Shown piece by piece: positions 16,965-42,055 of a DNA stretch of 64,000 nucleotides. The notes under the pieces are model-generated. The model did not search any database, was not told the origin of the DNA, and saw only the letters and a list, made by a program, of their open reading frames with translations. The stretch comes from Ignavibacteria bacterium (lineage in GTDB: Bacteria > Bacteroidota > Ignavibacteria > Kapaibacteriales > UBA2268), in contig JAERMQ010000001.1 in assembly GCA_016844745.1 (NCBI GenBank), forward strand, positions 29,475 through 93,474. The letters are read 5' to 3'. Positions within the stretch are counted from its first letter, which is position 1. Every line of letters begins with the position of its first letter. The translations under genes were made by a program, and so were the position numbers.

Positions 16965-16989
16965 AATTTTGATTTTTAAATTAGATATA

Positions 16990-17021
16990 AACGGGAGGAA
17001 AAAAATATTTTTCCTCCCGTT
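16990..17021 (-). promoter_or_regulatory. Intergenic stem-loop
   Basis: AACGGGAGGAAAAA...TTTTTCCTCCCGTT lies between the 17029 stop and the 16964 start. Confidence 0.6.
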
Positions 17022-17028
17022 ATTTAAA

Positions 17029-17484
17029 TTATTCAAATTTTAAGAACTTAAAATCCTTTTTATTATTATCAATTATGAACGAAGCAATAAAGATGCCGAT
17101 GTTAAGATTATCGATATTTAATGAATAGAGATTCATACCTTTATTTATTTCGATATATCTTTGTTCATTTACTTTCCCCGATAAATCAAAAATTCTTAAT
17201 TGAATCTTTTGATTAATTTTGGAATATAAATTGAAATTTAAAAGATTTCCAATTCCATAAATCCATTCTATTTTCAAACTCTCCAATGAGTTATTTTCAG
17301 AATTAACGGAATAGGTTTTTTGTGAGTTTGGAGTGATTACCTTAATTATAGTTGATTTAACAAAAATTCTTTTTTCGGAATTAATATTAAATTTTTTATT
17401 ATTGTTCTTACCCAATGAATGGGCTTCATTAACAAAAATATTAATGAAAATGAAAATAATAATAAAAATAGTTGTTTTTTTCAT
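17029..17484 (-). CDS. Small secreted protein consisting mostly of a T9SS-type CTD
   Basis: A GGAGG SD precedes the ATG at 17484 and the signal peptide is MKKTTIFIIIFIFINIFVNEAHS. The C-terminus reads IFDLSGKV...IDNLNIGIFIA...FKFLKFE. Confidence 0.7.
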   Translation of the reverse strand: MKKTTIFIIIFIFINIFVNEAHSLGKNNNKKFNINSEKRIFVKSTIIKVITPNSQKTYSVNSENNSLESLKIEWIYGIGNLLNFNLYSKINQKIQLRIFDLSGKVNEQRYIEINKGMNLYSLNIDNLNIGIFIASFIIDNNKKDFKFLKFE

Positions 17485-25121: not shown

Positions 25122-28100
25122 ATGAATCGACTGATTCGTCTAAGTTTACTTATATGTTTGTTTGCTGTTTTTTCGATAGAAGCAATAGCTCAAACACCAA
25201 ACCTTGTCAGAGTCTCCGGGCGCATTAGCCCCGGTGAGGTTAGAGTTTTTGTTAAAGACTCTATCTATGAAATTAACAATCAATATATAGTCGGCGGTAC
25301 GCTGATTATTGAACCAGGGACATTGATTTACTTCAATCCCAACAGTAGAATAGTAGATTCTACAGGCGGCAGAATCATAGCTGATGGCCGCGCGCAAACT
25401 ACTTATACTCCCAATCCTGGCACTTGGGACCCATTGGGCACTGCTTACAGCACTTCGAATCCCAAAGGATTTGCCGGTTATGCCGACCTTCGCTATTTTC
25501 TATGTAACTATGTACCCGGCGGACTACCGACCGGTCCTACAACCGTTACTGCAAATACGCCAAGAGATGTAACCGTGCATCCGTCAAAATATAATTATAT
25601 TTATAATGTTGTACTCGATACAAGCATTATTAATCCATTATCTACAGATACAACTTACAAAAACAGATACAGAAGAATAGTTGATTTGGATATCGGTAAA
25701 GAACCATTACCCGATGTTCCGGGCGTACCGGCAAGCGGACAGGTAATTGTTCCTTTCGAATATGCAATTTTATTTGTTACTTCGAGATTACAAAGCGACC
25801 CTTATGATGACGTTAACCTTAATATTAGCTCATGGAAAAGAGTTGGCGGGTATCCGGTCGATGTTTCTCCTGCCCAGATTAAATTTGTTGCACGTGATGT
25901 TGGTAATTATTCCCAGGAATGGGGACATATTATCGTATTACCAGGCGCAAGAGCAGCTTTCTTTAGAAACTGTTCATTCGAAGGCTTCAGAAAAGATACT
26001 ACTGTTGACAGAGTTGCAATTTACTCGGCTAACCTTGGCGGAACTGCAGGCGACGGTACATTGATGAATAATACTTTACGAAAACTTACAAATGGTAGTG
26101 GTGGAGCAATTACAACTTTTTCATCAAGGACATGGTTGATTAACTGCTCTTTTACCAATAACTTTGCAAGGTTTAGAGGTGGCGCAATTCAATTACTTCA
26201 AGCACCGGACGGATATCCGATGACAGGTAATACACCGGTAACAAATCCTACAAATGGGGGTAATTATTTTGCAAATAAAAATCCCAACATTACCGATAGA
26301 GACGGCAGTACATCGGACGTTATCGAGTTCAACGGAGTACCAAGAATCGATGAAATAGATGAAGCATTGGGAACAATTGCTCCAAGCTGCTCATGGTCAC
26401 GTTACGAATATTTGAATGATTATGAAAGACAAGCATTCGATGATGCACGTATAGCGCTTTATCTTGGAAGAATGCGTAACCTGACATTTACAAACAATAA
26501 GGTTATGCTTTCTAATTTCGGATTAATACCACCAATGAGTCTTCCAAGGGATATTACGGACAGACCGGCTAATTATCCCCAGGAATATGGAAACGGAGCC
26601 TTCGGAGGCGCTATCTATATTTCCGGTAAAGCAGGCGCTCCAAGTACATCGCAGATAGAAGTAGGTTTCGGTATTAATAATAGTATAATGATTGGTGGTG
26701 GTGAATCAACATTTACAACCCCGGATAATTTTGTATTATCCGGCAACAAAGCAATTAACTATCAAAACTCCACTCAGTCCTCAGGAGCAAGAGGCGGCGG
26801 TATTTATGTCGGCTCGATGACTTCGCTTATTTTAGCCGGTAATTACAATACAAATACCACTTCGGTACCATTTATCGAACAAGCAAATTTGGGACCGGCA
26901 ACCGGCGGATACTCCAGAGGCGGAGCAATTTATGAAGCTGAAACTTACGGACGTATTCAGGTACGCGGCGGTCCGGCAAGAGACCTGATTAGCAATCCTA
27001 CACAATTTGTCGGCAATAAATCTGCCGACGGTGGTGCAATGTACGTTGAAGGTAATATGACAAAAGTTCCTTATAATACTTTAGGATCGCCATTTTTCTA
27101 TGCATCGCCAATTATAGGCGGTTCGGATGTCAATCCCGTAACGAGAGATTTCGGATTTAACATTAAATTCGAAAATAATACGGCATCTGCTTCCGGAGGA
27201 GCTATTTATACAAACCGTAATATGGCAATGAACGGCGCTGGCGGTGTTGTTGCCGACCAGTTAATCGGTTATGGAGGTTTGTACCCAATAAGATTTTTAA
27301 ATAATACTGCCGGTTATGGCGGCGGCGCTATTGAAATCAACATCAAGAGCAGCCAAGGCGCAACAATTACAGACGACAGGCGAGCAGTAAAAATTATACG
27401 TTCGGTATTCGAAGGGAACCAAGTCGGTTATACAGCCGATTCTGCTTACTTTGCATCTGTTAAAGGCGGCGGCGCTGTTAATTGCGTCAATGCAGACCTT
27501 AACATTGTAAAGGGCGCTCAATTTTTAACAAATAAAGTTAAGAATGGTAATGGTGGTGCAGTAGCCATTGTATCTCCATGGTCATCGGCAAGAAGATTTA
27601 TTGTTTCCGACCTCGATACCATCAATACTTCCTTAAATAAGATGTCTCCGGATTTAAATACCGATATGACAGTCGGTACAAGCTTTATTTCTAATAATAA
27701 GTGCTTTACATTCGATACTTCCGGTATGTGGAATAACAGATATTATCCACCGGATTTGGGTATGTTAACACGATTCGTACAAAACGTTTGCGAAACCGAC
27801 CAGTCAATGAGAGATTCGCTTAACGGAACAGGAACCACACAAGTTGGTCTTGGTACTCTGAATCCCAATGATAATTTGAATGCAACTTACTGGATTGACG
27901 ATAACACCGGTTATGCCGGTGGTCAAAACGGAAGAGTTATTAAATTAACAAGCGGAGCCTCTAATTGGGCATTTAACCAGATTGACCCGTTGGCAACAGT
28001 AAATGATATTAAATTCCCAACTGATAATTCAGGTTATGCCGTCGGTACAAGTGGATTTTTCTACAAGACAACTAATGCAGGCACTAGTTGGAATCCGGTT

Positions 28101-31100
28101 ACATTACTGCCACCATCTCCCGGCAACTTAAATGCAGTAACATTTATTGGTTCTCAAATTGGTTATGTAGTAACATCAACTGGTGGGATTTATAAAACGA
28201 CTGATGGTTGGAGTTCAGTATGCTCTACTTTGGTCAATCCGGCTCCCGGTATTCCATTATACAATGTTTACTTTATCAGTTCATCAATTGGTTTCGTATG
28301 CGGAGATAATGGTTTGATAATGAAAACTACCGATGGTGGAGGTACATGGGGAATAACAGGCGTTCCCGGAATTACAAATTCATTGAATAACATTTTCTTT
28401 ATAAATACAAATACTGGTAATATTGTTGGTTCCGGTGGAGTTGTACTAAGAACATCAGACGGTGGAAATAGCTGGGATCAAATGGTAAGTAATACTACAT
28501 ATGATTTAGTAGGAGTTAGCTTCACAAATCAATCAAACGGATATGCTGTTGGTAACTTCGGAACTGCTATTAAGACAACAAATGGCGGAGTTGAATGGAA
28601 TTCAGTTACATTCACAACGAAAAATAATCTAAAAGATATTTACTTCTCATCGAGTAATGTTGGCTTTATCGTTGGCGATAAAGGTTTATTGATGAAGACA
28701 ACAGATGCCGGAGCTTCCTGGACAACACGCAGACCGGCGGATGAAAGATTAGTTGACGTAAAACGCTATCATCCCGAAGCACGATTACCTGAGAATGGAA
28801 TCGGTTTGGGTGGCGCTGTTTATGTATTGGATAGTATTACGGTAAACAGGGTGAATCGTCAGGATTCAATATTCTTCAACAGGGTTAGAATGCAAAACAA
28901 TATTGCATTCACCGGAGCAGCGGTTTATTCCGATAACTTCGACCTGAAACTTATCTTTAACCGTTCATTAATTACAGGTAACTCAATTGACCCGTCAAAC
29001 CAAATCGGCGCAACACAGAATGTCGTCGTTGGTCCGGTAATCAAGGATGGTAATAACACTTATAACCAAGCCTCGAAGGATTTGACAGGCGCAATTATAT
29101 ACGGAGAAATTCAGGGACCTCTTCCATCAAATTTATTCTCGGAAGCAGCGAACTCAATTTATGATAACACAGCAAGATTTTTAATCAGGTTACCCGATGC
29201 TCCTAATACCAAAGGTGTATTAGCCGGAACAACCGGTTACGGATTTGGCGGAACAGATACATTGAGGGGTAACTACTGGGGTAAAACAGAATCTAATGTT
29301 AATATGTATATAACAAATCAACAAAATAATAAAGTTGTACAGGAAACATTCTTCGTATCGGGAGATAATACTTCATGGCTGCCTTTCAGCTATCAGGCTA
29401 ATCCTGCCGATCCGAGAACACAGGGTCCTTTCGAATCGCTATTGAAATTTACATATCAACCGGTACCATTGAAAAATGTTGCTACCGATGAAAACGTTGC
29501 CGACCCGGCAAGTATTCCTGAAAAGATTCTACAGTCCGGCAGAATATATGATTTATATGATAAAGGTACTGATGTTAAAACAGCGGATTATTCAAAACGC
29601 AGAATGAGTCCGATAGAAGATTTCGCTGTTGGTATCCCCCCATATATGAGGTTATTCAATACAGCACGACAGCCGTCGTTTAATAAATATGTCAGAAGAC
29701 TAATTCATGACCCGGCAGTTGCAGAGAAAAGAGATAATAACAATGTTTTAGTATATCCATTTATTTCATTACTTCAAGATGAATGGAAACCGGACCCGAG
29801 CGGTAATCTTTACCACCCGCTTGGTGAGCCTTTATACTTAGAATCAATAGTAAATTATGACGGTTTGGTAGAAAGAAGCAATCACGATAATTTGACAAAG
29901 AACGAAACAGTATTCTTTGTAATTAACGAAAGTACTGATGATTACATGCGCATCAATTTACAGCAAGTATCCGAAGATGCTCCTTTCAGAGAAGTATTCA
30001 GGGGAAGAGTTGAACTTGTTCCGGATTCAACCCTAAGAAATCCACAAACTTCATATCGCAGATCTGCAGAAGGATTGTCTAACTTAGGTGATGGAAATGA
30101 ATTTTTGCAAAATGTCGGTACAAGACCATTTGCACCATATAAAGAAGATAAAGGGACACTCCCGGGACGTCGTTATTCTACTCCATGGAATGCAGCCGGT
30201 AATAATCCGTTAGCATATTCGAACAGAAATTCAGCAGGACAAGGTTCGAACGGTAGAAATATCGGAGACCCGGCATTTATTCCATATATGCCGGCAACTA
30301 ACGTCAACCCTCTGGGAACCAATTTGGAAACCTATTATGCAGGCGAACGCTATCATTCACTTCCTGTTAACGTTGGTGACCAAATTCGTGTCGTATCGCG
30401 AACGGTTCTTTGGAGAGACGGAGCTTTAACAGCTTACAATGAAAGTATGGTATTTAAAGTATCAGCTTCTACTCAACCACCGGTATTTACGGGTAATGTA
30501 GTTTCGTTGCAAAAAGATACAGTCATAAAAACCATGCCATCCGATAAGCCATGGGAATTTATAAAGATTGTAAAGATGACTGATTTCTTAAATAAAATCT
30601 TTATAACAGAGGACAGGGAATATCCGGTTCAATTAGGTACTTATTCAAATTTACCGACAGCCGGCGGCAAAGGTCGTGATTCTATTATGACCGTAACTGC
30701 TGTTGATTCGAACAATTTCTATGACCCGAGGTCTGTAACCGAATTTTCACCGAAATTATATTCGGCATTAACATACAGATGGTCTGTTGACGGTAATTCA
30801 GGATTATATCGCTGGTTGCTTTGCGATACGGTAAAAGCAGGATATACGGAAGATTTCGCGGGAAATACAATTCAAAATCCGCGAAATGGAGCCAAAGGTT
30901 ACCTTCAGTTCCATGGTCGCTCGATTAATCCTTACATAGTACCAGGCGGCGAATGGGTACACGTTGAAGTAGATAATTATCCGTTGCATTATAGAATGCT
31001 CGATTCAATGTTAGCTCATAATAAACGTGTAAACGATAAGATATCTCCTTACGATTCGGCAAAAGTAATTCCTCAGGATGTAATTGATAAATTCATTGAA

Positions 31101-33503
31101 GTATATTGTCCTTATATGAGTTCACCGGTTTACGATGTAACTAATGCAAGATTTTTGCAGCAAGATACGGTTAATTTTGGAACAGTTATAACTAATAAAT
31201 ATGATTTCCAGGTATTTGTCGTTGAATCTAATCCAAGATTTTTCGAACCAACGGATGCAACTGAACCTGTTATAAGACGGCTTGATTACATGAATACAAG
31301 TAATGATACTTTGGTTGTTTACGAACCATCGGTTTATACCTGTAATCAAACGGACGATGGGAAATTAATCGCAAACTTAACCGACCAACTGCGATTCCAG
31401 GTTGATTTCAATACAGATGATGAATTGGAAGATGCATGGGCTGTAAACTGGGATTTCAGATTTGGAAAAACATCTTATGGTTACATGAACCTTGCACGTA
31501 AAGGTAGTGAGTTGATTGGTATCGATACTACAGTTTATGATGGTGTTGACGATTTCGGTTATAGCGATGGAATCGATAACGATACAATTATAACGCAAAC
31601 AAGACCAAGATGGATGTCAAATAAATGGCATTTCAGATATAATAAAGAAGACCAGGCAAGCAATGACGGAACATTATTGGTTGATTTCCAGACAAATGGA
31701 AAAATTAATATACGTATCCCGAAAGATTCTGCTATGGCGCTGTTAAAGCCAAGAAACCAGATAAACGCCGCAATGAATCTCGATACGGTATTCTCAGTTG
31801 TCGTATCCGATGGTCATGGTGGTGTGAATTCGAAGATATTACCGATATTTATTAATGTTAAACCGACAATTACAAATGGTGATTTACCAAATGCCAAGGA
31901 AGATTTCGAATATACGTTGAATGGTAATGCAGGCAATCAACAAATGATTGATACATCTAAAATGGTTAAGGTATTCGACCCCAATCCAGGTCAGAAACAT
32001 ACTTTCAGATTGATTTATCCGAATGATACCAATATAACAACCGTACCTAAAGACCCGTGCTATCCCGAAGCAGGAGTTTGGGATCTTACCACAATGAGAA
32101 CAACACCGGAATGGATTCATATTAATCCTCAGAGTGGATTGTTATATGGCAAACCCGGAGTAAAAGATGCTCCACGTACAGATCTGGTTACGGTTCTCGT
32201 TACGGATGAAGGCGGATTAACCGATGTAAGACAATTAAATATAACAGTTGATTCAACAAATCACAGACCGGCAATGTTTAATGAACCGCTTATGAAATGC
32301 GTTGTTAAAGGCGCTCCATATTCGGAAACAATGTGGGTTCGCGACCTTGATTTACTGCGTGGCAGACAACCCGGTGACCCGACAGAAACAATTACAATAA
32401 CAGTATCAAAACCGACATCAGGATTCTCGGTAACACCATCAACAATTTCCGGCATATTTACCGGAACACCCGATAACGGAGTCTATCAACGTTCTGATTA
32501 TTCGAGGTCGTTCACAATCCAAAGCACAAGCTTTAATCCACCTGCAGATATGGATGGAAAAGCAACAATTGAAATAACAGTTACCGATAAATCAGGCGCA
32601 ACTCATGTTATATCATACAGGGTATCGATTTCCGAAACAGTTGATTTTGAATGTCAGTTATTAGTTGCAAATTCAATTGGAGCAAGCCAGATGTTATCAT
32701 TCGGTACAGCCCCAAGATATGCATCGAGCGGTGATGGTACAGATACTGATTACCCGGTAGCAGGTCATTTGGATGAAGAATATTGCGAAACCGAATGTCC
32801 ACCCGTTCCACCGGTTGACGTATTCGATGCACGCTGGACAATACCTACAAAGAATGGTATCCTGAGAAACATCTTCAAGACTGGTAAAGTAGGCGATACA
32901 ACAGAACGCAGATATGTTGGTAAGATTCAACCGGGAGGAGAAAACGGTACAACATCTCCGGCATATCCGTTAACACTTACATGGAATAAAACGGAAGTAC
33001 CTGCAAGAAGTGATAGAACTAAGAATCCAAGCGGAGCTTCATGGTTCATCAGGGATGCAGCTTCGAACGGTTCATGGTTCAATGTAAATATGAACACTGG
33101 TTTGGGTAACTGGGTAAAACCAATACAGGTAAATAATAATGGTAATAACTGCGAAATCGTAATTGCACCAAATACAATTTGGGAATTTGTTATTGTTCAT
33201 GATTGGGCAAGTGATGTTGAAACGAACGGGGCAATTTTGGGTAATAAGATTACTTCGGTTGCGCCAAATCCGGTAAACAACTCAGCACAGATTAGTTTTG
33301 AATTATCAGCAGCTAATAAGATAAAAATCGATATAGTCGATGCACTTGGTAATATCGTAAAAACCATGGTAAACAACGTTGAATATACAGCTAACCAATA
33401 TACAATCCAATGGAATCAAGTAGAACTTCCTGTTGGAGCATATATGGTAAGACTGATATCAGGCGGAGTAGTTTCGGCATACCCGATAGTTATCATTAAA
33501 TAA
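25122..33503 (+). CDS. 2793-aa T9SS cargo: GGA(I/V)-repeat beta-helix, inserted YCF48/BNR-type propeller, He_PIG/cadherin-like Ig domains, CTD
   Basis: It has a signal peptide and many N.A..GGAI repeats. KTTDGG.SW blades lie at about 27870-28740, and PEWIHINPQSGLLYGKPG...VTDEGG marks an Ig-like domain. The C-terminus is APNPV...LPVGAYMVRL...PIVIIK. Confidence 0.85.
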   Translation: MNRLIRLSLLICLFAVFSIEAIAQTPNLVRVSGRISPGEVRVFVKDSIYEINNQYIVGGTLIIEPGTLIYFNPNSRIVDSTGGRIIADGRAQTTYTPNPGTWDPLGTAYSTSNPKGFAGYADLRYFLCNYVPGGLPTGPTTVTANTPRDVTVHPSKYNYIYNVVLDTSIINPLSTDTTYKNRYRRIVDLDIGKEPLPDVPGVPASGQVIVPFEYAILFVTSRLQSDPYDDVNLNISSWKRVGGYPVDVSPAQIKFVARDVGNYSQEWGHIIVLPGARAAFFRNCSFEGFRKDTTVDRVAIYSANLGGTAGDGTLMNNTLRKLTNGSGGAITTFSSRTWLINCSFTNNFARFRGGAIQLLQAPDGYPMTGNTPVTNPTNGGNYFANKNPNITDRDGSTSDVIEFNGVPRIDEIDEALGTIAPSCSWSRYEYLNDYERQAFDDARIALYLGRMRNLTFTNNKVMLSNFGLIPPMSLPRDITDRPANYPQEYGNGAFGGAIYISGKAGAPSTSQIEVGFGINNSIMIGGGESTFTTPDNFVLSGNKAINYQNSTQSSGARGGGIYVGSMTSLILAGNYNTNTTSVPFIEQANLGPATGGYSRGGAIYEAETYGRIQVRGGPARDLISNPTQFVGNKSADGGAMYVEGNMTKVPYNTLGSPFFYASPIIGGSDVNPVTRDFGFNIKFENNTASASGGAIYTNRNMAMNGAGGVVADQLIGYGGLYPIRFLNNTAGYGGGAIEINIKSSQGATITDDRRAVKIIRSVFEGNQVGYTADSAYFASVKGGGAVNCVNADLNIVKGAQFLTNKVKNGNGGAVAIVSPWSSARRFIVSDLDTINTSLNKMSPDLNTDMTVGTSFISNNKCFTFDTSGMWNNRYYPPDLGMLTRFVQNVCETDQSMRDSLNGTGTTQVGLGTLNPNDNLNATYWIDDNTGYAGGQNGRVIKLTSGASNWAFNQIDPLATVNDIKFPTDNSGYAVGTSGFFYKTTNAGTSWNPVTLLPPSPGNLNAVTFIGSQIGYVVTSTGGIYKTTDGWSSVCSTLVNPAPGIPLYNVYFISSSIGFVCGDNGLIMKTTDGGGTWGITGVPGITNSLNNIFFINTNTGNIVGSGGVVLRTSDGGNSWDQMVSNTTYDLVGVSFTNQSNGYAVGNFGTAIKTTNGGVEWNSVTFTTKNNLKDIYFSSSNVGFIVGDKGLLMKTTDAGASWTTRRPADERLVDVKRYHPEARLPENGIGLGGAVYVLDSITVNRVNRQDSIFFNRVRMQNNIAFTGAAVYSDNFDLKLIFNRSLITGNSIDPSNQIGATQNVVVGPVIKDGNNTYNQASKDLTGAIIYGEIQGPLPSNLFSEAANSIYDNTARFLIRLPDAPNTKGVLAGTTGYGFGGTDTLRGNYWGKTESNVNMYITNQQNNKVVQETFFVSGDNTSWLPFSYQANPADPRTQGPFESLLKFTYQPVPLKNVATDENVADPASIPEKILQSGRIYDLYDKGTDVKTADYSKRRMSPIEDFAVGIPPYMRLFNTARQPSFNKYVRRLIHDPAVAEKRDNNNVLVYPFISLLQDEWKPDPSGNLYHPLGEPLYLESIVNYDGLVERSNHDNLTKNETVFFVINESTDDYMRINLQQVSEDAPFREVFRGRVELVPDSTLRNPQTSYRRSAEGLSNLGDGNEFLQNVGTRPFAPYKEDKGTLPGRRYSTPWNAAGNNPLAYSNRNSAGQGSNGRNIGDPAFIPYMPATNVNPLGTNLETYYAGERYHSLPVNVGDQIRVVSRTVLWRDGALTAYNESMVFKVSASTQPPVFTGNVVSLQKDTVIKTMPSDKPWEFIKIVKMTDFLNKIFITEDREYPVQLGTYSNLPTAGGKGRDSIMTVTAVDSNNFYDPRSVTEFSPKLYSALTYRWSVDGNSGLYRWLLCDTVKAGYTEDFAGNTIQNPRNGAKGYLQFHGRSINPYIVPGGEWVHVEVDNYPLHYRMLDSMLAHNKRVNDKISPYDSAKVIPQDVIDKFIEVYCPYMSSPVYDVTNARFLQQDTVNFGTVITNKYDFQVFVVESNPRFFEPTDATEPVIRRLDYMNTSNDTLVVYEPSVYTCNQTDDGKLIANLTDQLRFQVDFNTDDELEDAWAVNWDFRFGKTSYGYMNLARKGSELIGIDTTVYDGVDDFGYSDGIDNDTIITQTRPRWMSNKWHFRYNKEDQASNDGTLLVDFQTNGKINIRIPKDSAMALLKPRNQINAAMNLDTVFSVVVSDGHGGVNSKILPIFINVKPTITNGDLPNAKEDFEYTLNGNAGNQQMIDTSKMVKVFDPNPGQKHTFRLIYPNDTNITTVPKDPCYPEAGVWDLTTMRTTPEWIHINPQSGLLYGKPGVKDAPRTDLVTVLVTDEGGLTDVRQLNITVDSTNHRPAMFNEPLMKCVVKGAPYSETMWVRDLDLLRGRQPGDPTETITITVSKPTSGFSVTPSTISGIFTGTPDNGVYQRSDYSRSFTIQSTSFNPPADMDGKATIEITVTDKSGATHVISYRVSISETVDFECQLLVANSIGASQMLSFGTAPRYASSGDGTDTDYPVAGHLDEEYCETECPPVPPVDVFDARWTIPTKNGILRNIFKTGKVGDTTERRYVGKIQPGGENGTTSPAYPLTLTWNKTEVPARSDRTKNPSGASWFIRDAASNGSWFNVNMNTGLGNWVKPIQVNNNGNNCEIVIAPNTIWEFVIVHDWASDVETNGAILGNKITSVAPNPVNNSAQISFELSAANKIKIDIVDALGNIVKTMVNNVEYTANQYTIQWNQVELPVGAYMVRLISGGVVSAYPIVIIK

Positions 33504-33514
33504 TATTCGCAAAC

Positions 33515-33547
33515 TCGGCTCTGCCCCTTTAACAAGGGCAGAGTCGA
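33515..33547 (+). promoter_or_regulatory. Intergenic GC-rich stem-loop without U-tract
   Basis: TCGGCTCTGCCC-ctttaacaa-GGGCAGAGTCGA lies just after the 2793-aa stop. Confidence 0.7.
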
Positions 33548-33591
33548 ATTAACAAGAAGAAAAAATTTATTATAAATCGAAGGAGAAAAAA

Positions 33592-35589
33592 ATGAAACAA
33601 AAATTCTTATTAGCTGCGAGTATGGCAATTCTGCTTTTCGCCAGCTTGCAGCCCTTAGGCGCGCAGGTGTACAGCCAGTTTAAGGATTTGGTAATTAAAA
33701 AGAATGTGCCATATTCCGAGGTTGTAGCCAATAGAAGTGACTATGCCAGAAGTTCGTTTACTATCTGGGGGCAAACGCGTCCCGACCAAGGTTATGATGA
33801 TGGTTATAAGTATGTTCAATTTCCAGCTAATTTTAAATTTGAATATAACAGTGAAGTTTATGATGGTTGCTGGATTTCAGTAAACGGATTCATTACCTTT
33901 ACAGAACCGCCGAAATTAGCAGTATCATCGCGTGATGCTACGATTCTTTTCAAGAAAGCGCCAAACTTCCCGATAAATGTAATTGCTCCTTTCTGGGGCG
34001 ACCACTACTATAGAAGCAGTGCACAAGAGCCTGGTTATGTTTCATCAGCAGTCAGGACCGGTTGGGAAACAGTAGCAAATAATAAAAGAGTATTTATTAT
34101 TGAATGGAAGAATTTGAATATAAATGATAAATCTATTCCATCATCTGTTGCTACATTCCAGGTAAGAATATATGAATCAACCAGCCCCAATTCATATCAG
34201 GGCGATATTGAATTCTGCTATGGAAATATTAACAGTACACAGGGTTCAACTAACGTTGTAAAAGGTTCGTCAGTCGGATTGAATGGCGAATTCTACGGTG
34301 GACGTTCGAAAAATGGTATTGATGACAGGGTAGATTTTATCAACGCTTTATATAATGATAATGCAGTATGTGGTCTCGGAATTGACCCATACAAGAGAAG
34401 AACAGAAGAAAATTTGACAACAATGTGGACACCATCGGGTTATAACGATTGGAGAATCCGCTTCGTAGTCGAACCCCAATTGAACGTAGAAGAATGGTGG
34501 GGCGATGGTGATGCAGGCATGTCTAAAGCGCCGGGAGGTTCGGATTACGCAGATCCGGGTCCTGCTCCATGGTTCCAAAATCGCTGGGTTTCCGTAAATG
34601 ATGCAAGAACGATTATCCGTTCCATAGCAAGAAACCGACCTCTCGATAGTATCCGCAGAAGGGCAGCTTTCCATGGTGATGCAAATCATAACGGTAGATT
34701 CTACTTTAAAGATACATCATGGGTTGTTCCCTTAACATTAGTTATTAAAGACTCAACTATGAAACGCCTTATCAGAAACCAGGATGAAGTTTATACCGAC
34801 AATCTGAGAGACCCGTTAACATGGGCAACTATTCCCAGCGCTAAAGCAGTGTACTTTGCAGTTACTGAAGCTGATGCTTCATTAATTCTGCATTACTTAG
34901 CAGCTCGCGTTCCCAAGCTTCCCTGGTTAATTGATACTATTGTCAGGTCAGGAAAAGTAACGCCAACAGAGCAGTTGTCATCAAATATTCAAATTGGTGA
35001 TATTAGGACTGTTGCTGAAAATACCTACCTGATTCCAATAGCATTCAATGGATATAGCGAAGGAACCGTTTCCGGTAAATTCAATATTAATGGCGAAATC
35101 GTTAACATATTTAATAATGCCAGCGATGACATAATGATTGATAATAACAATTCAACATTCGTTTTTGCAGGCAGTGGAAAATTCGAATCCGGATTTCCCT
35201 TCATTAATTTAATTGTGAAAACCGATTCTAAGGACATTAATATTACCGATTTAAGATTCAACGATAATGAAAAGAATCCTATTAATATTCATTTGACTGA
35301 AGAGCAGGTAAATACAAATTCCATACTATATAATGATGATAATCCGGTAACAAAAAACACGCAAATATTTGCGAATATTAAAGATGCCGGTAATTACACA
35401 ATTACAGTCATTGATTTGTTCGGCAATAAAATTAAAACCATTACAAATGGAAATTTAAACGCCGGATTTAATCAATTTGAATGGAATTTAACCGACCAAA
35501 ATGGTTCTTCGGTTCCAAATGGTGTTTACTTCTATATACTTAATGGTGAAAATCTAACGATTATGAATAAAATGGTTGTAGCAAGATAA
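33592..35589 (+). CDS. 665-aa secreted protein: nidogen-like N-terminus, divergent dockerin-like module, FlgD-Ig/T9SS CTD
   Basis: The nidogen-like segment reads ISVNGFITF...IAPFWGD...FIIEW...TFQVRIY. The dockerin-like segment reads GDGDA...SVNDARTII / GDANHNG...TEADASLILHYL. The C-terminus is WNLTDQNGSSVPNGVYFY...KMVVAR. Confidence 0.8.
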   Translation: MKQKFLLAASMAILLFASLQPLGAQVYSQFKDLVIKKNVPYSEVVANRSDYARSSFTIWGQTRPDQGYDDGYKYVQFPANFKFEYNSEVYDGCWISVNGFITFTEPPKLAVSSRDATILFKKAPNFPINVIAPFWGDHYYRSSAQEPGYVSSAVRTGWETVANNKRVFIIEWKNLNINDKSIPSSVATFQVRIYESTSPNSYQGDIEFCYGNINSTQGSTNVVKGSSVGLNGEFYGGRSKNGIDDRVDFINALYNDNAVCGLGIDPYKRRTEENLTTMWTPSGYNDWRIRFVVEPQLNVEEWWGDGDAGMSKAPGGSDYADPGPAPWFQNRWVSVNDARTIIRSIARNRPLDSIRRRAAFHGDANHNGRFYFKDTSWVVPLTLVIKDSTMKRLIRNQDEVYTDNLRDPLTWATIPSAKAVYFAVTEADASLILHYLAARVPKLPWLIDTIVRSGKVTPTEQLSSNIQIGDIRTVAENTYLIPIAFNGYSEGTVSGKFNINGEIVNIFNNASDDIMIDNNNSTFVFAGSGKFESGFPFINLIVKTDSKDINITDLRFNDNEKNPINIHLTEEQVNTNSILYNDDNPVTKNTQIFANIKDAGNYTITVIDLFGNKIKTITNGNLNAGFNQFEWNLTDQNGSSVPNGVYFYILNGENLTIMNKMVVAR

Positions 35590-35591
35590 TA

Positions 35592-36809
35592 ATGAAATTT
35601 CCTAAAAAACATATTGCATGCGCCTGGTTGCTGCTAAGCTTGCTTAGCGGCTACCAGCCTGCATTGTCCCAGGAATTGGAATCTGCTACTTTATCCCTTG
35701 CAAAACCAATCGATGTATGCGGTGATAAAATTGACAGGGAAGTTCAATTGCTTGTAAATATAGGATTAATAAAGAAATCGGATTCTTTATTTGGTTTTGA
35801 TTTGGAAATTAAATTTGACAGGAACAAAATCAAGTTCAATTCAGCCCTGTTGATAGGTACTTTAGCAGATAATTTCGATACCAAGGTTAATCCTACATTT
35901 TCTGTTGATTTGCAAGGTAACGGTGTTATTTCTGCTGCAGGTATGAATTTTAATTATAATTTACCACCTGTTTACGGAAATAAACCATTAATAGCGTTTC
36001 TTGGTGAATATTTAGGCAATTGTCCTGAAACTTTGGAAATTAAACTTACAGATATTCAATTTACCGATGAATTTAAGAAAACATTTAGTCGTAATTCTGT
36101 TAATACAATAAAAGCTGAAATATATGATAATCCTCAGCGGTATTTACGGTTTATTTTGCCAACAAATAAAATTATATTCGATACATTTGAAATAAAGACT
36201 TCAATTTCATTGAAAATCAATAAAGTTCAAGGTTTGGACAGTCTCGAATTTCTGATTGCGTTCGATAATCCAACTAATTACTTTGTATCAGATATAAAGT
36301 CAAAAAATAACAATGTTATTATTGATTCGGTATTGGATGATGCAAAGGGCAAAAGACTGAAAACAAGAATTCTCCAACCGGTAAATAATGAAGATATATT
36401 TGAAGTGGAATTTACAAGAAAAATTGATAAAGATGAAAATATTAAAATACATTTTACTCCATTAAAAGTTAACGGTTGTGCTTGTGCCACAAGATTGCTC
36501 GATACAACGATTTTATTGTTAAACACAAAAAATCCTGTAACATCAATTAACAATGATGAAATTATTAATAATAATTACATAGGTTATGTTTCATCCGATA
36601 ATAAATATTTTATTGTTGAAACAAGTAACAGCCTACCGCAAAATTTAATATTATATAATATGCAGGGAAATGAAATTAATACTGAAATTACAATTAATAA
36701 TAAAAGCATAATTGTTAATCTTGACAATATTTCTAACGGTTTATATTTAGCCGTTATAAGAAATAAAAAGAACGAAATAAGAATAATAAAGTTTATAAAA
36801 AATCAATAA
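35592..36809 (+). CDS. 405-aa T9SS cargo with cohesin-like N-terminal domain
   Basis: It has a signal peptide, a cohesin-like segment LLVNIG...LFGFDLEIKFDRNKIKF and a CTD (LYNMQG...ISNGLYLA...IKFIKN). Confidence 0.7.
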   Translation: MKFPKKHIACAWLLLSLLSGYQPALSQELESATLSLAKPIDVCGDKIDREVQLLVNIGLIKKSDSLFGFDLEIKFDRNKIKFNSALLIGTLADNFDTKVNPTFSVDLQGNGVISAAGMNFNYNLPPVYGNKPLIAFLGEYLGNCPETLEIKLTDIQFTDEFKKTFSRNSVNTIKAEIYDNPQRYLRFILPTNKIIFDTFEIKTSISLKINKVQGLDSLEFLIAFDNPTNYFVSDIKSKNNNVIIDSVLDDAKGKRLKTRILQPVNNEDIFEVEFTRKIDKDENIKIHFTPLKVNGCACATRLLDTTILLLNTKNPVTSINNDEIINNNYIGYVSSDNKYFIVETSNSLPQNLILYNMQGNEINTEITINNKSIIVNLDNISNGLYLAVIRNKKNEIRIIKFIKNQ

Positions 36810-36832
36810 TTTTTAACAAATTGGAGGTTCTC

Positions 36833-39800
36833 ATGAAGAGATACTTTTTACAAAACAAGGTAATTCGATTGCTATTCGGATTGTTGCTTTTATCGGCAAT
36901 ATTCCTGGTAGAAATCGAAACAACCAATGCTCAGCAATTACCGCAAGTTCCTGTGTTGAGTTTAACCGGTGAAAATGACACCTACAACAAAGAAATCTAC
37001 CCGGATGGAAGAATTTGGCTGCCGGCATCTATAAATGGTCCGAGGGAATTCCTCCTGCCTGTATATGTCGAGAACAGATGGTACACATACAATGAAGCCA
37101 GCTTGATTGCCAATCCAATCTATAGTTTCGAGTTTAGTGTTGTATATGACTCAACAGCTATCAGAGCAACAGGAGTGCAGCCATTCGGCGATGCAAGGCT
37201 TGATCATACTCCCTTAGCCAGCAATTTCTCAATGGCATGGTATGATGAAAGGGATTTAACTTACAAAGAATACCTCGACCCCGGAACTACACAGGCTGAA
37301 AACGAAAAGGGCAGAGCTATTAGAATAGTCGGTACTGCAACATCAAACGCATTACCAAATACCGACCTAAGTGCCCAGGATTTTAAAGTACTGCTTTATG
37401 TTAAATTCAGGATAGTTGCAACAGGAGTTGGCGCCGGTTTGTTTACTCCTATTTATATTTCACCTAAATTAATAAAATATAATGATTGCAACATCCGGAC
37501 AACTCATCCGTTCGAAAAATCCACTGTCGGTCCATATTATGGTCTAGGCAAAATCGTTGACCCCGGAGCGAATATAATTTATTACTCAACCAATCCTTAT
37601 ATCGGTATGGGTGGTATTGATAATTCAACAAGGTCGAGATATGCTACCGAGCCGACATTACCAGGTTCTATTTATTTAAGATTTGAAACAACCTTACCTC
37701 AATTTGAATTTGTTATTAACAGAGGTAAAGGTCAAATTCCGGCTGTAAAAAAGATACCAACTGCGCCGGAATATGAAATTTGGGAGATTTCAGACCCCAT
37801 AACAGTAGATTCAGGCTCTGTAACACCACTATGGGGTTCACGAGTTGTCCAATTAAGGAATTCCGTTTCTCGTTCACGTTTGACTGATATTGAAATTGAA
37901 TCCGACCAGCCTTGGTTATGGTTCAGAACAAGGTCTTACGGAACAGGTACAAAAAATCCGATACCGACTTCAACTCGAGCTGATTATATTAATTATATCG
38001 ATAATGGAATATTAGGCGATTATCAAGACCCGATGGATATACCAACCGTGGCTGATGGTGATGTCTTCTTAGAGGTGCAATGCAATCCGACATATTTAGA
38101 CAATGCAACAGAATATGAGCATGCAGGTATTTATGTAGGATACCTTACATTCAAATCCGATGCGGCTGCAATCACCCCGGTTAAATTAAAGGTAACATTC
38201 ATTTATTTCCGCAATCCCCGGGAAGGCGCTATCGGAGGAAGATTACCAGGTATTGAACTGACAGTTATGAATTCCGCACCTGTTCCCGATGTAACAACTT
38301 TAGTATTTGGAACCGGCTTTAAGGCAAGTAATGGAGTAGATTCTTTATTTGGCGAATATGCTTATGATTCTCCTTTGCAAAACTTCGGTGCACGCTGGTA
38401 CTGGCACTCATCGATGAATCCTAAAGAAGTTCAGGCTGACCACAAGGTATATCTTGAACAAAATGGATTTGGTGACTTTTCATCGAGTGAAGACGTTCCT
38501 CATTCTTCATCGAGGGATATCCGCAGCAATATGGATACTTTAAAATCCTTAATTTACTATTGTAAATTTAATGCAGGCGGTCCGGATAAATACCCAGTTG
38601 TATTAGAATGGGATGTTACCGACTTTATTATTATGGAAAAACAAATCCAAATAGAAGGCGGAAAATTTACTATTAAGGATGCAGTTAACGGAGGTCTCTT
38701 CCATGTTGATATGCGTAATGCAAATCCTAAAGGTCCGAATAAAATGACTTATACTATCGAAGATGCTAAATATTCCGAATTCATCATTGAATATACTCTT
38801 CCTAACATAATCAAATTTGTTGACGGTTACGGTAATCCAATTATTAAAAGCGGCTGGAATTTATTGTCATTACCAAGAGCCCCTGTGAACACAAATTGGA
38901 AAGCAATTTATAAAAATGCTATCAATATTCCGGTAACTTTTGCCAAACTCTGGCAACAAGCGCCGGTATTGACGCCAGGTGTTGGATATTGGGTAAGATA
39001 CCCGGATAATATAGTCGATGTATCCTTCTCCGGCGCTTATATTGACCAAATTAATGCCGTTGTTTATCCAACTTTGCTTTATACCGGTTGGAATACCGTT
39101 GGTTCCTGCTCCGGTCCTGTAAACGTGAAAGATATTGACCTTATTCCTTTCAATTCTTCAGACCCACCCGATATTAACGAAACTAAGAAAAAAGGTGTTT
39201 TCAGATATGTTACCGGTATTGGTTATAAAGAAGTATCTGAAATGTCACCCGGTTTAGGTTACTGGATGTATGTTAATAAGGGCGGTTATTTGAAAATGGA
39301 AGTTGATTTATCTAATATCGGTAATTCAAAAATGAATGCCCAGGTTGAAGATAATTATACAAAAACTAACATTTTCACAAACAGCACACAATTAACTGTT
39401 CGTGATAATTCAAGCAATGAAGGCACTGTTTATTTGACAACAAATAACAATGTTAATGTTAATGCATTTGAATTACCTCCGCCTCCACCTTTCGATTTGT
39501 TTGACATTCGTTTCAATAATAATATTGGTACCAGCCTTGACAATTCATCTGAACCGTTATTAAAACTTCAGGGCGTAACCTATCCTGTTTCTCTTGCGAT
39601 TGAGAAAGCTGATGCGAAATATACTTTTGTTGATGCAGTATCAGGACAGGTTTTCGGTTCAGTCAACAAAGGCGAAACAGGTAATATCGAAATAGGTTCA
39701 ACAAAATCCAATACAATCAAAATTTTGAAAACGGAAATTTCTACAGATTTGCAAATTTCCTGTAAACCAAATCCGATTGTAACTGAAAGTAACTTAAGCT

Positions 39801-40006
39801 ACAGTATTCCGGTAAGCGGCAATGTAACTATTACATTATATGATGCTCTCGGAATACAAGTATCAACATTATTAAATGATTATAGAAGAGCAGGCGAATA
39901 TAATGATATTAAAGTCAGCTCTGCCAATTTAACAGCCGGTCAATATTTCTGCAAAATAGTATCCGGCGGTAATACAGTAATAAGCACTTTGAATATTATC
40001 AGGTAA
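36833..40006 (+). CDS. About 1057-aa T9SS cargo: cohesin-like N-terminus, BACON-like domain, GWN..PG.GYW repeats, CTD
   Basis: A GGAGG SD precedes the ATG at 36833. Motifs include LPVYVEN...IYSFEFSVVYDSTAIRATGV, SDQPWL...GIYVGYLTF and GWNLLSLP/PGVGYWV/GWNTVG/PGLGYWM. The C-terminus is KPNPI...LTAGQYFC...LNIIR. Confidence 0.8.
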   Translation: MKRYFLQNKVIRLLFGLLLLSAIFLVEIETTNAQQLPQVPVLSLTGENDTYNKEIYPDGRIWLPASINGPREFLLPVYVENRWYTYNEASLIANPIYSFEFSVVYDSTAIRATGVQPFGDARLDHTPLASNFSMAWYDERDLTYKEYLDPGTTQAENEKGRAIRIVGTATSNALPNTDLSAQDFKVLLYVKFRIVATGVGAGLFTPIYISPKLIKYNDCNIRTTHPFEKSTVGPYYGLGKIVDPGANIIYYSTNPYIGMGGIDNSTRSRYATEPTLPGSIYLRFETTLPQFEFVINRGKGQIPAVKKIPTAPEYEIWEISDPITVDSGSVTPLWGSRVVQLRNSVSRSRLTDIEIESDQPWLWFRTRSYGTGTKNPIPTSTRADYINYIDNGILGDYQDPMDIPTVADGDVFLEVQCNPTYLDNATEYEHAGIYVGYLTFKSDAAAITPVKLKVTFIYFRNPREGAIGGRLPGIELTVMNSAPVPDVTTLVFGTGFKASNGVDSLFGEYAYDSPLQNFGARWYWHSSMNPKEVQADHKVYLEQNGFGDFSSSEDVPHSSSRDIRSNMDTLKSLIYYCKFNAGGPDKYPVVLEWDVTDFIIMEKQIQIEGGKFTIKDAVNGGLFHVDMRNANPKGPNKMTYTIEDAKYSEFIIEYTLPNIIKFVDGYGNPIIKSGWNLLSLPRAPVNTNWKAIYKNAINIPVTFAKLWQQAPVLTPGVGYWVRYPDNIVDVSFSGAYIDQINAVVYPTLLYTGWNTVGSCSGPVNVKDIDLIPFNSSDPPDINETKKKGVFRYVTGIGYKEVSEMSPGLGYWMYVNKGGYLKMEVDLSNIGNSKMNAQVEDNYTKTNIFTNSTQLTVRDNSSNEGTVYLTTNNNVNVNAFELPPPPPFDLFDIRFNNNIGTSLDNSSEPLLKLQGVTYPVSLAIEKADAKYTFVDAVSGQVFGSVNKGETGNIEIGSTKSNTIKILKTEISTDLQISCKPNPIVTESNLSYSIPVSGNVTITLYDALGIQVSTLLNDYRRAGEYNDIKVSSANLTAGQYFCKIVSGGNTVISTLNIIR

Positions 40007-40038
40007 TATTCAACTGCTCGTTAACGACTGAAAAGAAT

Positions 40039-40086
40039 AAACGGGTAACATATACCAACAAAAGGTAGTGTTGCCCGTTTTATTTC
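40039..40086 (+). terminator. Stem-loop, possible weak terminator
   Basis: AAACGGGTAACA...TGTTGCCCGTTT is followed by TATTT. Confidence 0.55.
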
Positions 40087-40107
40087 CTCAAGAAAAAAAA
40101 TTAGAGA

Positions 40108-40896
40108 ATGAAAAATTTTACCTTACTTCTGCTTTTGTTTATTGTTTTGTCAATAAATTTATTGACTGCGCAGGACATTACAGCTTTTCGGCATCAAATC
40201 ATATTATCTAATAAAACCGAGAAATTAGACAATCTTAACTTCGGTATTAATTCCAAAGCTACATATAAAATCGATAGTGAATTAGGCGAATGGGAAATAC
40301 CAAATTATCCGCCACAAGGGGCTTTTTTTGGTTCATTTCAATACCTTGACTCAGCAACAGGTCAGATGTTAAATATTCTATCCTATAATGACTTTAAATC
40401 CGTACCTGCTCAAGAAAAATTTTCTATCAAATTCCTGTTAGTCGTTCAGCGTTCCGCAGATAATGAGTTAACCATAGAATGGAAGAGTTTCCCTAAAGAA
40501 GTTGACTCAGTGAAATTAAATGATATTGATTTCGGAACTATCATTAATGTTGATATGCTCAAAGTTAACAAATATATGGTGTCCAATCAATTCCAAAACA
40601 GGTTTTATATTACTGTTTGGTATAATTTATTTCCAACCGAGGTAGCAGAACAGTCCGAAGCAACCAACCATCCAATTATCTATCCCAATCCGGCTCACAA
40701 TATTATTAAGATTCAATCTGAAAGTGTGCAACAACTTCAGATTATTTCCGATTTATCGGAAATTGTTTATCAGAAGAATGAAATCCGCTCATGGGAATCA
40801 ATAGAATTATCGGATATTCCTTCCGGAATTTATCTTGCGCTATTGAAGATGAGAAACGGCGGGGTAGTGTGCAGTAAGCTAATTGTAGTAAAATAG
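40108..40896 (+). CDS. 262-aa T9SS cargo with FG...AT..D..LGE.E.P..PP domain
   Basis: It has a signal peptide, the segment LNFGINSKATYKIDSELGEWEIPNYPP and a CTD (IYPNPA...PSGIYL...KLIVVK). Confidence 0.8.
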   Translation: MKNFTLLLLLFIVLSINLLTAQDITAFRHQIILSNKTEKLDNLNFGINSKATYKIDSELGEWEIPNYPPQGAFFGSFQYLDSATGQMLNILSYNDFKSVPAQEKFSIKFLLVVQRSADNELTIEWKSFPKEVDSVKLNDIDFGTIINVDMLKVNKYMVSNQFQNRFYITVWYNLFPTEVAEQSEATNHPIIYPNPAHNIIKIQSESVQQLQIISDLSEIVYQKNEIRSWESIELSDIPSGIYLALLKMRNGGVVCSKLIVVK

Positions 40897-40948: not shown

Positions 40949-42055
40949 TTGAAAAGGAGCATAGAACAAGTGGATAATCAGCAAATTATTAAAAAACAAA
41001 AGCCCAAGGAAGAACCAAAAGATGAACAGAAAAATGAGCAAAAAAATGAAAAACAAATTCAAAAAAATTATAAAGATAGAAAATTTCGAAAATTTGATAA
41101 TGATAGAACGAAACAAACATTTGTATCTGTAGTTATTCCGGTATTTAATGAAGAGGAATCCCTTCAGGAACTAACACAGACATTAGAAGGAGAATTAGAT
41201 AAATTTGCAAAGAATTCTTATGAGATAATTTTTATTGATGATGGTTCAACCGATAAATCCTTCGATATAATGAAACAACTGAATAAGCGAAATCAAAATA
41301 TCAAAGTATTGCGATTCCGGCGCAACTATGGCAAATCTGCTGCTTTGACTGTCGGGTTTGCCGAAGCACGCGGATTGGTTGTAATCACTATGGATGCGGA
41401 TTTGCAGGATGACCCCAAAGAAATACAGAATTTGATTTCCAAGTTAAAAGAAGGTTATGACCTGGTTTCAGGATGGAAGAAAAAAAGAAAAGACCCAATA
41501 ACCAAAACAATTCCATCGAGATTTTTCAATTTCGTGACATCGATTGTAACAGGTCTGAAACTTCACGATTTTAATTGCGGACTAAAGGCATACAGGCGCG
41601 AAGTAGTTAAAAACCTTCAAATTTATGGAGAAATTTACAGGTATATTCCAGCCCTTGCCAAATGGGAAGGTTTTAAAGTTACTGAAATTCCTGTTGAGCA
41701 TCATTCCCGTAAATTCGGAAAATCAAAATTCGGTTCAACGCGTCTTATTAAAGGATTCCTCGATTTATTGACAATTCTTTTTACTACTCGATATATTAAG
41801 CGTCCGCTTCATTTTTTCGGAACCTTCGGAACATTGTTTTTCCTTACCGGCTTTGCATTGAATGTTTACCTTACCGTGGAATGGTTTCTCGGTAAAACCT
41901 GGCTTAGCAACAGACCTTTAGCATTATTTGGCGTTGCTTTAATTATTGTTGGCGTTCAATTATTTTCCATAGGATTAATTGGCGAAATGCTCGTTAAGAA
42001 TTCTATATCGAACATTACATATAGCATAAAAGAGAAAATATCTTCAAGAAAATAA
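40949..42055 (+). CDS. Family 2 glycosyltransferase, ArnC/DPM1-like, with two C-terminal TM helices
   Basis: Motifs SVVIPVFNEEESL, IDDGSTD, RNYGKSAAL, MDADLQDDP and HDFNCGLKAYR are present. The start is uncertain (TTG, low-complexity N-terminus). Confidence 0.9.
   Translation: MKRSIEQVDNQQIIKKQKPKEEPKDEQKNEQKNEKQIQKNYKDRKFRKFDNDRTKQTFVSVVIPVFNEEESLQELTQTLEGELDKFAKNSYEIIFIDDGSTDKSFDIMKQLNKRNQNIKVLRFRRNYGKSAALTVGFAEARGLVVITMDADLQDDPKEIQNLISKLKEGYDLVSGWKKKRKDPITKTIPSRFFNFVTSIVTGLKLHDFNCGLKAYRREVVKNLQIYGEIYRYIPALAKWEGFKVTEIPVEHHSRKFGKSKFGSTRLIKGFLDLLTILFTTRYIKRPLHFFGTFGTLFFLTGFALNVYLTVEWFLGKTWLSNRPLALFGVALIIVGVQLFSIGLIGEMLVKNSISNITYSIKEKISSRK

Follow-up and report, generated by a model that had tools for sequence, protein, structure and literature searches.

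We analysed a 64,000-nt stretch of contig JAERMQ010000001.1 from the Ignavibacteria bacterium assembly GCA_016844745.1 (hereafter the window; all positions are window coordinates) and describe here a single-copy, clade-conserved operon of five genes whose products, P1–P5, are cargo of a type IX secretion system (T9SS). We estimate at about one half the probability that these products form a single surface structure devoid of enzymes. The five genes keep a fixed order, every product ends in a T9SS sorting domain, P3 has a cohesin fold, P2 contains a module of dockerin ancestry, and P1, P4 and P5 share a module of their own. Assembly of the five proteins into a complex is plausible; the pairs that would bind are predicted, and we infer the single product.

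An earlier note, made from the sequence alone, had described five closely packed, co-oriented genes with T9SS-type C-terminal tails, and both parts of that description are confirmed. All five open reading frames (ORFs) lie on the forward strand with intergenic gaps of 88, 2, 11 (23 if P4 starts at its ATG) and 101 bases, and all five products exceed the cut-off of TIGR04183, the profile of the T9SS type A sorting domain, at their extreme C-termini (Table 1). Promoter and terminator scans gave no excess over shuffled sequences (78 versus 74.2 and 15 versus 14.3, respectively) and are uninformative on the operon limits. By-eye reading of the translations shows that P1–P5 each begin with a basic/hydrophobic leader closing in A/S-Q, and the A-Q motif at the leader end is conserved in the family consensus sequences. 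The genome encodes SprA (TIGR04189, 745 and 217 bits versus a cut-off of 200) and a PorV-like ORF (153.6 and 70.1 bits, below the cut-off of 250), and a narrow sorting-domain profile matches 216 of its 5485 six-frame ORFs, i.e. cargo is abundant. Because of this number and because the gene order is conserved across species, the adjacency of five cargo genes is not due to chance. Searches of the ESM Atlas with P4 and P5 returned unnamed T9SS-cargo clusters only. Following the paradigm of P. gingivalis and F. johnsoniae, each protein would cross the inner membrane by its leader peptide. The C-terminal sorting domain would then direct its export by the T9SS, probably to be fixed to the outer surface.

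We then focused on the cohesin-like modules. The P3 model (mean predicted local distance difference test score, pLDDT, of 91.6, from an alignment of 58 relatives) was compared by VIA-align, without Foldseek, with 48,161 representative chains. The nine best matches to its first domain are all cohesins (Z 12.6–14.0, root-mean-square deviation (rmsd) 2.5–3.1, 127–146 residues aligned), whereas the best non-cohesin match reaches Z 9.3. This domain superposes on solved cohesins over most of its length, which, for a nine-stranded beta-sandwich, is what we mean by a cohesin fold, at a sequence identity between P3 and solved cohesins of 7–14%. The second domain also matches cohesins best, the next matches reaching ∼Z 9, and the cohesin dyad 3l8q_A matches P3 at Z 11.8 over 253 residues. 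Because its three parts match cohesins, cohesins and T9SS sorting domains by fold, P3 is, as modelled, a cohesin–cohesin–sorting domain protein with the layout of a mini-scaffoldin. A 704-aa relative of P3 (P0006) carries the dyad twice, which can be likened to scaffoldins, where cohesin number varies. The cohesin-like strings that the earlier note had quoted from P3 and P4 are present in the translations; its cohesin call for P3 is borne out by fold, and the second cohesin-like domain had escaped it.

At the sequence level, the cohesin family PF00963 is matched by 7 of the 58 P3 relatives at E ≤ 1 (best E 1.3e-4). A PDB search with the P3-family profile yielded sorting-domain or FlgD-type matches, and its sole cohesin row, 2xdh_A (E 1.3), is aligned to the sorting-domain region. 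Foldseek lists for whole models are dominated by generic tandem immunoglobulin (Ig)-like proteins, with cohesins at rank 1 for P2 and at ranks 7 and 15 for P3; the residue ranges given by VIA-align were preferred to these whole-model results. Four cysteines of the P3 family (C43, C144, C296 and C298) are invariant or nearly so; the dyad may therefore contain disulfides or bind a metal, which is unusual for cohesins.

P4 consists of a cohesin-like N-terminus, a module shared with P1 and P5, a partial second copy of that module and the sorting domain. Its N-terminus appears to be cohesin-like, as weak sequence signals suggest: PF00963 is matched by P4 itself (Table 1) and by 11 of 44 relatives at E ≤ 1 (best E 8.8e-4), and the P4-family profile finds only two matches in the PDB, both of them cohesins (4dh2_A, E 0.058, and 5lxv_A, E 0.68).

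P2, which has >256 full-length relatives at 33–52% identity, comprises a NIDO-like domain, a split dockerin, a beta-sandwich and the sorting domain, and a FlgD-type Ig domain was also matched in the Pfam and NCBIfam scans. The VIA-align list for its model is filled by the sorting domain and barely covers the parts that resemble NIDO and dockerin. When 33 family members are aligned, 21 of the 49 invariant columns fall in residues 303–445. This region consists of two D-x-D/N-x-D/N(-G) starts, each followed by an insertion and then by a helix of the type V/T-x-x-D-A-x-x-I-L. The loop starts are D305-x-D307 and D363-x-N-x-N367-G368 and the matching helices begin at D337 and D428; the model places helices at residues 335–347 and 426–436 and a hairpin insertion at 369–394.

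For comparison we used 18 canonical Dockerin_1 segments found in other genomes belonging to this class. Local hhalign relates the P2 module to them with E 2.2e-5 (Prob 76), residues 325–375 alone with E 3.9e-6 (Prob 87) and the second helix alone (410–455) with E 3e-5, while five other P2 segments, used as controls, give Prob ≤0.3. None of 150 column shuffles reached the local score (observed 31.5; shuffle mean 9.8, maximum 16.6). We also inspected the ORFs of the class that carry canonical dockerins: 19 of 25 end in a dockerin, ∼140–170 aa and then a sorting domain, which is the layout of P2 residues 300–665. One of these ORFs has, between dockerin and sorting domain, a domain that resembles the P2 sandwich (E 1.9e-4). 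As judged by these sequence comparisons, the P2 module derives from a dockerin and is a non-canonical one. A tail made up of a dockerin, a single further domain and the sorting domain thus looks like a standard cassette of T9SS cargo in the class.

A further module of ∼150–190 residues, labelled SD in Table 1, is common to P1, P4 and P5 (hhalign Prob 97.8–98.5, E 1e-12 to 1.6e-15), the P1 copy matching the middle of P4 at Prob 98.5, E 1.6e-15. In P1 and P5 it directly precedes the sorting domain. The module belongs to no Pfam family, its P5 copy giving no match at E ≤ 10, and within this genome the module is found only in P1, P4 and P5 at E ≤ 0.01. Module profiles likewise found no second copies of the cohesin or dockerin modules elsewhere in the genome at E ≤ 0.01.

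Taken at face value, these parts suggest how the surface structure might be put together: (i) P3 would act as a two-cohesin mini-scaffoldin; (ii) P2 would plug into P3, or into the cohesin-like N-terminus of P4, via its diverged, insertion-bearing dockerin; and (iii) P1, P4 and P5 would be tied in through the shared ∼160-aa module. A different wiring of the same proteins, which we regard as unlikely, is that the cohesins of P3 and P4 bind the shared module, of which P1, P4 and P5 each have a full copy, rather than classical dockerins. The split dockerin of P2 would then pair with the adjoining downstream sandwich, either in cis or head-to-tail, and the product would be an envelope structure of fixed composition throughout the clade. 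If so, the shared module would define a class of cohesin ligand that is new, and the structure would be a T9SS-built coat or fibre without a described counterpart.

The gene order of the operon is highly conserved. P2 relatives are encoded in 190 species genomes, and 80 loci were kept for synteny analysis, with record titles naming Kapabacteria, Kapaibacterium, Ignavibacteria, Chlorobiota or Bacteroidota bins. Single-sequence searches found all five genes in 52 of the 60 loci with enough flank, and in a further five loci the missing P3 or P5 was detected with family profiles, so that 57 of 60 keep all five in the same order and on the same strand; P5 went undetected by the family profiles in loci L012, L014 and L038. 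Across the 80 loci there is no violation of order or strand (0/80), and the P2 relatives in the conserved loci are only 33–40% identical to P2 here. Lack of co-conservation of the five genes had been named beforehand in the earlier note as a possible refutation, and the co-conservation is upheld by these counts.

We also surveyed 200 genomes sampled from the class for P2. Full-length P2 occurs in six families of this sample, the rest having only sorting-domain-level matches. Counted by group, P2-bearing genomes make up 20/22 of the organism's own order, 21/21 of family f7 and 22/22 of family f10. Canonical Dockerin_1 (counted at E ≤ 1e-4) is rare in the six operon-bearing families, with 3 of 36 sampled genomes versus 33 of 84 in other families. 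The cohesins of the operon therefore need a ligand of their own.

This census bears on the possibility of a cellulosome-like scaffold, in which the cohesins of P3 and P4 would capture enzymes or lectins that carry dockerins and are encoded elsewhere in the genome. A T9SS cargo protein of 2142 aa with Laminin_G_3, Dockerin_1 and sorting domains is encoded 17 kb upstream of the operon (positions 2292–8720, +). Its near-canonical Dockerin_1 (residues 1483–1531, positions 6738–6884) scores 27.2 bits in one scan and 21.8 in another against a cut-off of 22.9. At E ≤ 10, Pfam gives twelve further cohesin-like matches in the genome (e.g. C93:5108-5368), one of which exceeds the cut-off, versus one dockerin over its cut-off; sockets are thus more numerous than recognizable plugs. 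The 2142-aa protein would be a candidate for recruitment from outside; canonical dockerins occur on T9SS cargo in 37 of 121 class genomes, and a T9SS-anchored scaffoldin has been inferred in Cloacimonadota (PMC8542988). By contrast, the operon is kept in families that rarely have a canonical Dockerin_1, the dockerin of the 2142-aa protein is the only one of canonical type over the cut-off in this genome, and P1–P5 contain no CBM or catalytic family (see below). Recruitment from other loci is very unlikely on this balance.

The gene content of the operon is consistent with an enzyme-free structure. No catalytic family and no carbohydrate-binding module (CBM) family was found in P1–P5 or in 16 P1 relatives (Pfam and NCBIfam, E ≤ 0.1), which bears out the earlier report that no glycoside hydrolase (GH) or protease motif is present; the pairing of a GH with dockerin and a scaffoldin with CBM, by which a cellulosome is defined, is absent. 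The payload folds named there also hold: the beta-helix has PMP repeats, the propeller is Ycf48-like, the nidogen-like fold is a NIDO domain and the Ig domains are of He_PIG/FlgD type. The giant P1 contains, in order, the PMP-repeat beta-helix, the Ycf48-like propeller, a second beta-helix, ∼800 aa of conserved sequence of unknown nature, Ig domains, the shared module and the sorting domain, and its 16 relatives are 43–53% identical to it over the full length.

Another reading is a gliding or adhesion apparatus of the SprB/RemA type, where P1 would be the mobile adhesin and the four smaller proteins its accessory or attachment factors; in Flavobacterium, sprB is co-transcribed with accessory genes. 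P1 is T9SS cargo with a giant repetitive beta-helix, with Chlam_PMP repeats in 17 of 17 relatives, and the P3 sorting domain matches that of RemA at Z 10.0, a value that reflects only the common sorting fold. On the other hand, SprB, RemA and the families of their accessory proteins went unmatched in the Pfam and NCBIfam scans, which included no search for gliding genes, and at E ≤ 0.1 the beta-barrel gene downstream of the operon matches neither PorP/SprF nor any further NCBIfam entry. Such an apparatus would be compatible with the five proteins forming one structure, and we consider it improbable.

We made one complex prediction, in which P3 28–316 and P2 295–455 were both supplied as alignments, alongside three controls. 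The predicted complex scored 0.46 (runs 0.38, 0.46 and 0.59), whereas the best of the three controls scored 0.00. Agreement between the runs is at least 79% of contacts, with partner pLDDT of at least 41. The verdict is weak support. Among solved complexes, 58 of 80 reach the mark that this score passes, and among mismatched pairs 2 of 110 do; scores ≤0.60 that pass it include only 7 of the 80 solved complexes and both passing mismatches. The pass may reflect likeness only, because cohesin–dockerin complexes have already been solved.

Several further observations weigh against an assembly held together by cohesins and dockerins. Besides the weak complex pass and the uncertain fold of the P2 module, the following apply: (i) the cohesin-like segments in the window all fall below the PF00963 cut-off of 24.1 bits, those of P3 giving no match at E ≤ 10, and the cohesin-like modules of the three proteins concerned lack significant mutual profile similarity (best hhalign E 0.0036, Prob 9); (ii) the P2 sandwich reaches only Z 8.2–8.3 to the cohesins 1ohz_A and 2xdh_A in VIA-align, and unrelated sandwiches score alike; (iii) the P2 model is poor at residues 297–330 (pLDDT <50), its calcium loops are interrupted by ∼22 and ∼55 residues, and position 309 is G, not D, in this genome; (iv) PF00404 (cut-off 22.9 bits) is absent from the P2 segment at E ≤ 10, and Dockerin_1 was found in 0 of 33 P2 relatives at E ≤ 1 among the matches listed; (v) global-mode hhalign (E 2.6e-6) is unreliable and was discounted because 5 of 150 shuffles reach its score (maximum 132.7); and (vi) every protein has its own sorting domain, and therefore none needs a cohesin to reach the surface or stay there. 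The PDB search with the P2-family profile returned sorting-domain or FlgD-type matches only, with no dockerin at E ≤ 10, and the contiguous 12-residue calcium loops running straight into helices that characterize type I dockerins are not found in P2.

The earlier interpretation is partly supported, its module calls being largely right. The duplicated dockerin-like motif of P2 is real and strongly conserved, and it is not a canonical dockerin. The cohesin call for P4 keeps a weak sequence signal and falls short of the Pfam cut-off. Assembly through cohesin–dockerin pairs gains, at a weak level only, from the P3–P2 prediction, and the non-canonical dockerin and weak P4 cohesin count against it. 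The roles that the earlier note suggested for the complex, in adhesion, as a sheath or in prey contact, are speculative.

The same observations could be explained by five independent surface proteins, each self-anchored, in which the cohesin folds serve as stalks or spacers, the dockerin-like segment is a structural calcium-binding element or a linker, and the genes are linked by regulation or a common process. The sorting domain on every protein, the non-canonical dockerin and the weak complex prediction would all fit this explanation, and tandem beta-sandwiches are common as surface spacers, in line with the many generic Ig-like structure matches. It accounts less well for (i) the specificity of the P3 cohesin match, which stands well above the best non-cohesin; (ii) the concentration of invariant columns in the P2 dockerin module, which would be unusual for a linker; (iii) a module that P1, P4 and P5 have in common and that this genome encodes at no other place, which points to mutual contacts; and (iv) a gene order that persists while the P2 proteins have diverged to 33–40% identity. 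We consider independence of the five proteins the main rival explanation, possible, if on the doubtful side.

The proposal that the five products form one surface structure can be set against known systems. With clostridial cellulosomes (e.g. 1ohz, 4uyp, 4dh2 and the dyad 3l8q) the operon shares the cohesin fold of P3 (Z up to 14.0), tandem cohesins on a small cell-anchored protein whose relatives vary in cohesin number, and, in P2, a duplicated calcium-loop/helix module related to dockerins. It differs from them in that (i) it has no enzymes or CBM; (ii) its host is Gram-negative, with T9SS sorting domains in place of surface-layer homology (SLH) or sortase anchors; (iii) the dockerin loops are split and missed by Pfam; (iv) every component is self-anchored; and (v) the cohesins are only 7–14% identical to solved ones.

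Non-cellulosomal cohesin- and dockerin-like modules are known already, having reportedly been described by Peer et al. in 2009. P3 matches structures that we take to be examples of such cohesins, i.e. 2xdh from Archaeoglobus fulgidus (2xdh_A, Z 12.7) and 2w1n and 2o4e from Clostridium perfringens GH84C (2w1n_A, Z 12.5; 2o4e, Z 11.1). Such modules mostly occur singly, on enzymes or on orphan proteins, in contrast to the fixed, ordered five-gene set with a shared module described here. From T9SS type A cargo (gingipains, RemA and SprB) we recognize the sorting domains, that of P3 matching RemA/RemZ (8gl6, 8gl8) at Z 9.8–10.0, and SprA in the genome, with no homology beyond the sorting domain. 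A T9SS-anchored scaffoldin is also known already: according to PMC8542988, Cloacimonadota have an inferred cellulosome-like system with a tandem-cohesin scaffoldin bearing a T9SS-type C-terminal domain. That system is alike in that a member of the FCB group attaches cohesins to its cells by means of a T9SS sorting domain; as described there, it has canonical Pfam domains, CBMs and dockerin-bearing hydrolases or peptidases, unlike the enzyme-free set of Pfam-hidden modules here (PMC8542988). Full-text literature searches found no paper that deals with this operon or with Kapabacteria cohesins. What is new is the clade-conserved, enzyme-free five-gene set, the split dockerin and the shared module.

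Table 1. Positions of the five operon genes, their domains and the flanking genes of the conserved block (window coordinates; TIGR04183 cut-off 23 bits)
Feature	Position	Strand	Evidence
P1, giant T9SS cargo, 2793 aa	25122-33503	+	ORF
Ycf48/BNR-like beta-propeller of P1, ∼residues 915-1205	27864-28736	+	PF14870 E 3.5e-31; family profile to 5ojp_A E 1.7e-29
Shared module (SD) of P1, ∼residues 2507-2700	32640-33221	+	hhalign to P5 N-terminus Prob 98.1, E 9.6e-14
T9SS type A sorting domain of P1, residues 2713-2789	33258-33488	+	TIGR04183 24.1 bits
P2, 665 aa	33592-35589	+	ORF
NIDO-like N-terminal domain of P2, ∼residues 30-295	33679-34476	+	PF06119 E 1.9e-6, 28.4 bits versus cut-off of 25; most blocks pLDDT 73-94
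Dockerin-derived module of P2, ∼residues 300-448	34489-34935	+	Invariant residues, predicted helices, hhalign
Beta-sandwich of P2, residues 461-570	34972-35301	+	Foldseek top match 2w1n (cohesin+FN3 construct), E 9.3e-8
T9SS sorting domain of P2, residues 584-663	35341-35580	+	TIGR04183 23.1 bits
P3, 405 aa	35592-36809	+	ORF
Cohesin 1 of P3, residues 28-178	35673-36125	+	Z 14.0 to 4uyp_A, 136/144 residues, rmsd 2.6
Cohesin-like domain 2 of P3, residues 180-316	36129-36539	+	Z 11.1 to 2o4e, 11.0 to 5n5p_C
T9SS sorting domain of P3, residues 327-404	36570-36803	+	TIGR04183 25.3 bits; Z 10.0 to RemA sorting domain 8gl6_D
P4, 1061 aa from TTG, 1057 aa from ATG at 36833	36821-40006	+	ORF
Cohesin-like N-terminal domain of P4 (weak), ∼residues 45-245	36953-37555	+	PF00963 E 0.17, 12.5 bits versus cut-off of 24.1
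Shared module (SD), full copy in P4, ∼residues 477-669	38249-38827	+	hhalign Prob 97.8-98.5 to P5 and P1 copies
Partial second SD motif in P4, ∼residues 857-901, preceding sorting domain	39389-39523	+	hhalign Prob 87-95, E 3.6e-6 to 3.8e-8, 20 columns only
T9SS sorting domain of P4	39767-39991	+	TIGR04183 24.6 bits
P5, 262 aa	40108-40896	+	ORF
Shared module (SD) of P5, ∼residues 25-180	40180-40647	+	hhalign; P5 = SD + sorting domain
T9SS sorting domain of P5	40678-40887	+	TIGR04183 28.2 bits; PF18962 38 bits
Membrane-anchored tetratricopeptide repeat (TPR) protein, 252 aa, head of conserved block	24261-25019	+	TPR families; hydrophobic helix ∼residues 49-67
Family 2 glycosyltransferase (GT2), polyprenyl-phosphate glycosyltransferase-like gene	40949-42055	+	PF00535 E 1.1e-34; ArnC-like NF007986 216.9 bits, under cut-off
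Small outer-membrane beta-barrel-like protein, 265 aa	42065-42862	+	PF13505 E 0.022 only; leader peptide

The conserved block extends beyond the five genes on both sides. A relative of the TPR gene lies upstream of P1 in 71 of the 80 loci, and in 59 of the 59 that have enough upstream flank. Its product combines an acidic N-terminus, one hydrophobic helix and TPRs, and so is laid out like periplasmic TPR proteins that are anchored in the membrane and not like a lipoprotein; it weakly matches PorW/SprE (E 3.3e-9, far below the cut-off). On the downstream side, the beta-barrel gene travels with the GT2 gene and is found in 53 of 80 loci. These two genes are less strictly linked, with all eight genes from TPR to barrel present in 45 of the 59 loci with room; in locus L026 the GT2 gene lies 2.6 kb further off. 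A gene for a fused E1 alpha/beta 2-oxoacid dehydrogenase (714 aa, 21813–23957, +) is located upstream of the TPR gene. The same holds for 40 of 80 loci, and many of the remaining ones end short there; since the gene is kept, synteny is not confined to the genes for surface proteins. The conserved block is directly followed by the gene of an 852-aa DNA methyltransferase-like protein with weak similarity to the anti-phage family DUF1156 (42993–45551, −). A further T9SS cargo ORF of 522 aa (15468–17036, −) matches PF18962 at 55.1 bits and no other Pfam family.

Assembly by cohesins and dockerins is known mainly from the enzyme complexes of Gram-positive anaerobes. Here, the parts have diverged beyond the reach of Pfam, they belong to an enzyme-free T9SS operon, and the five-gene order is kept by a large uncultured clade. 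The operon offers defined small modules that are testable in vitro without culturing. If the parts bind, (i) the plug-and-socket principle would also build core envelope structures in Bacteroidota-related bacteria; (ii) the P2 module would represent a new, insertion-bearing type of dockerin, and the operon might hold a new cohesin ligand as well; and (iii) this would help to explain why, in this class, dockerins so often stand just before T9SS sorting domains (19 of 25 examined).

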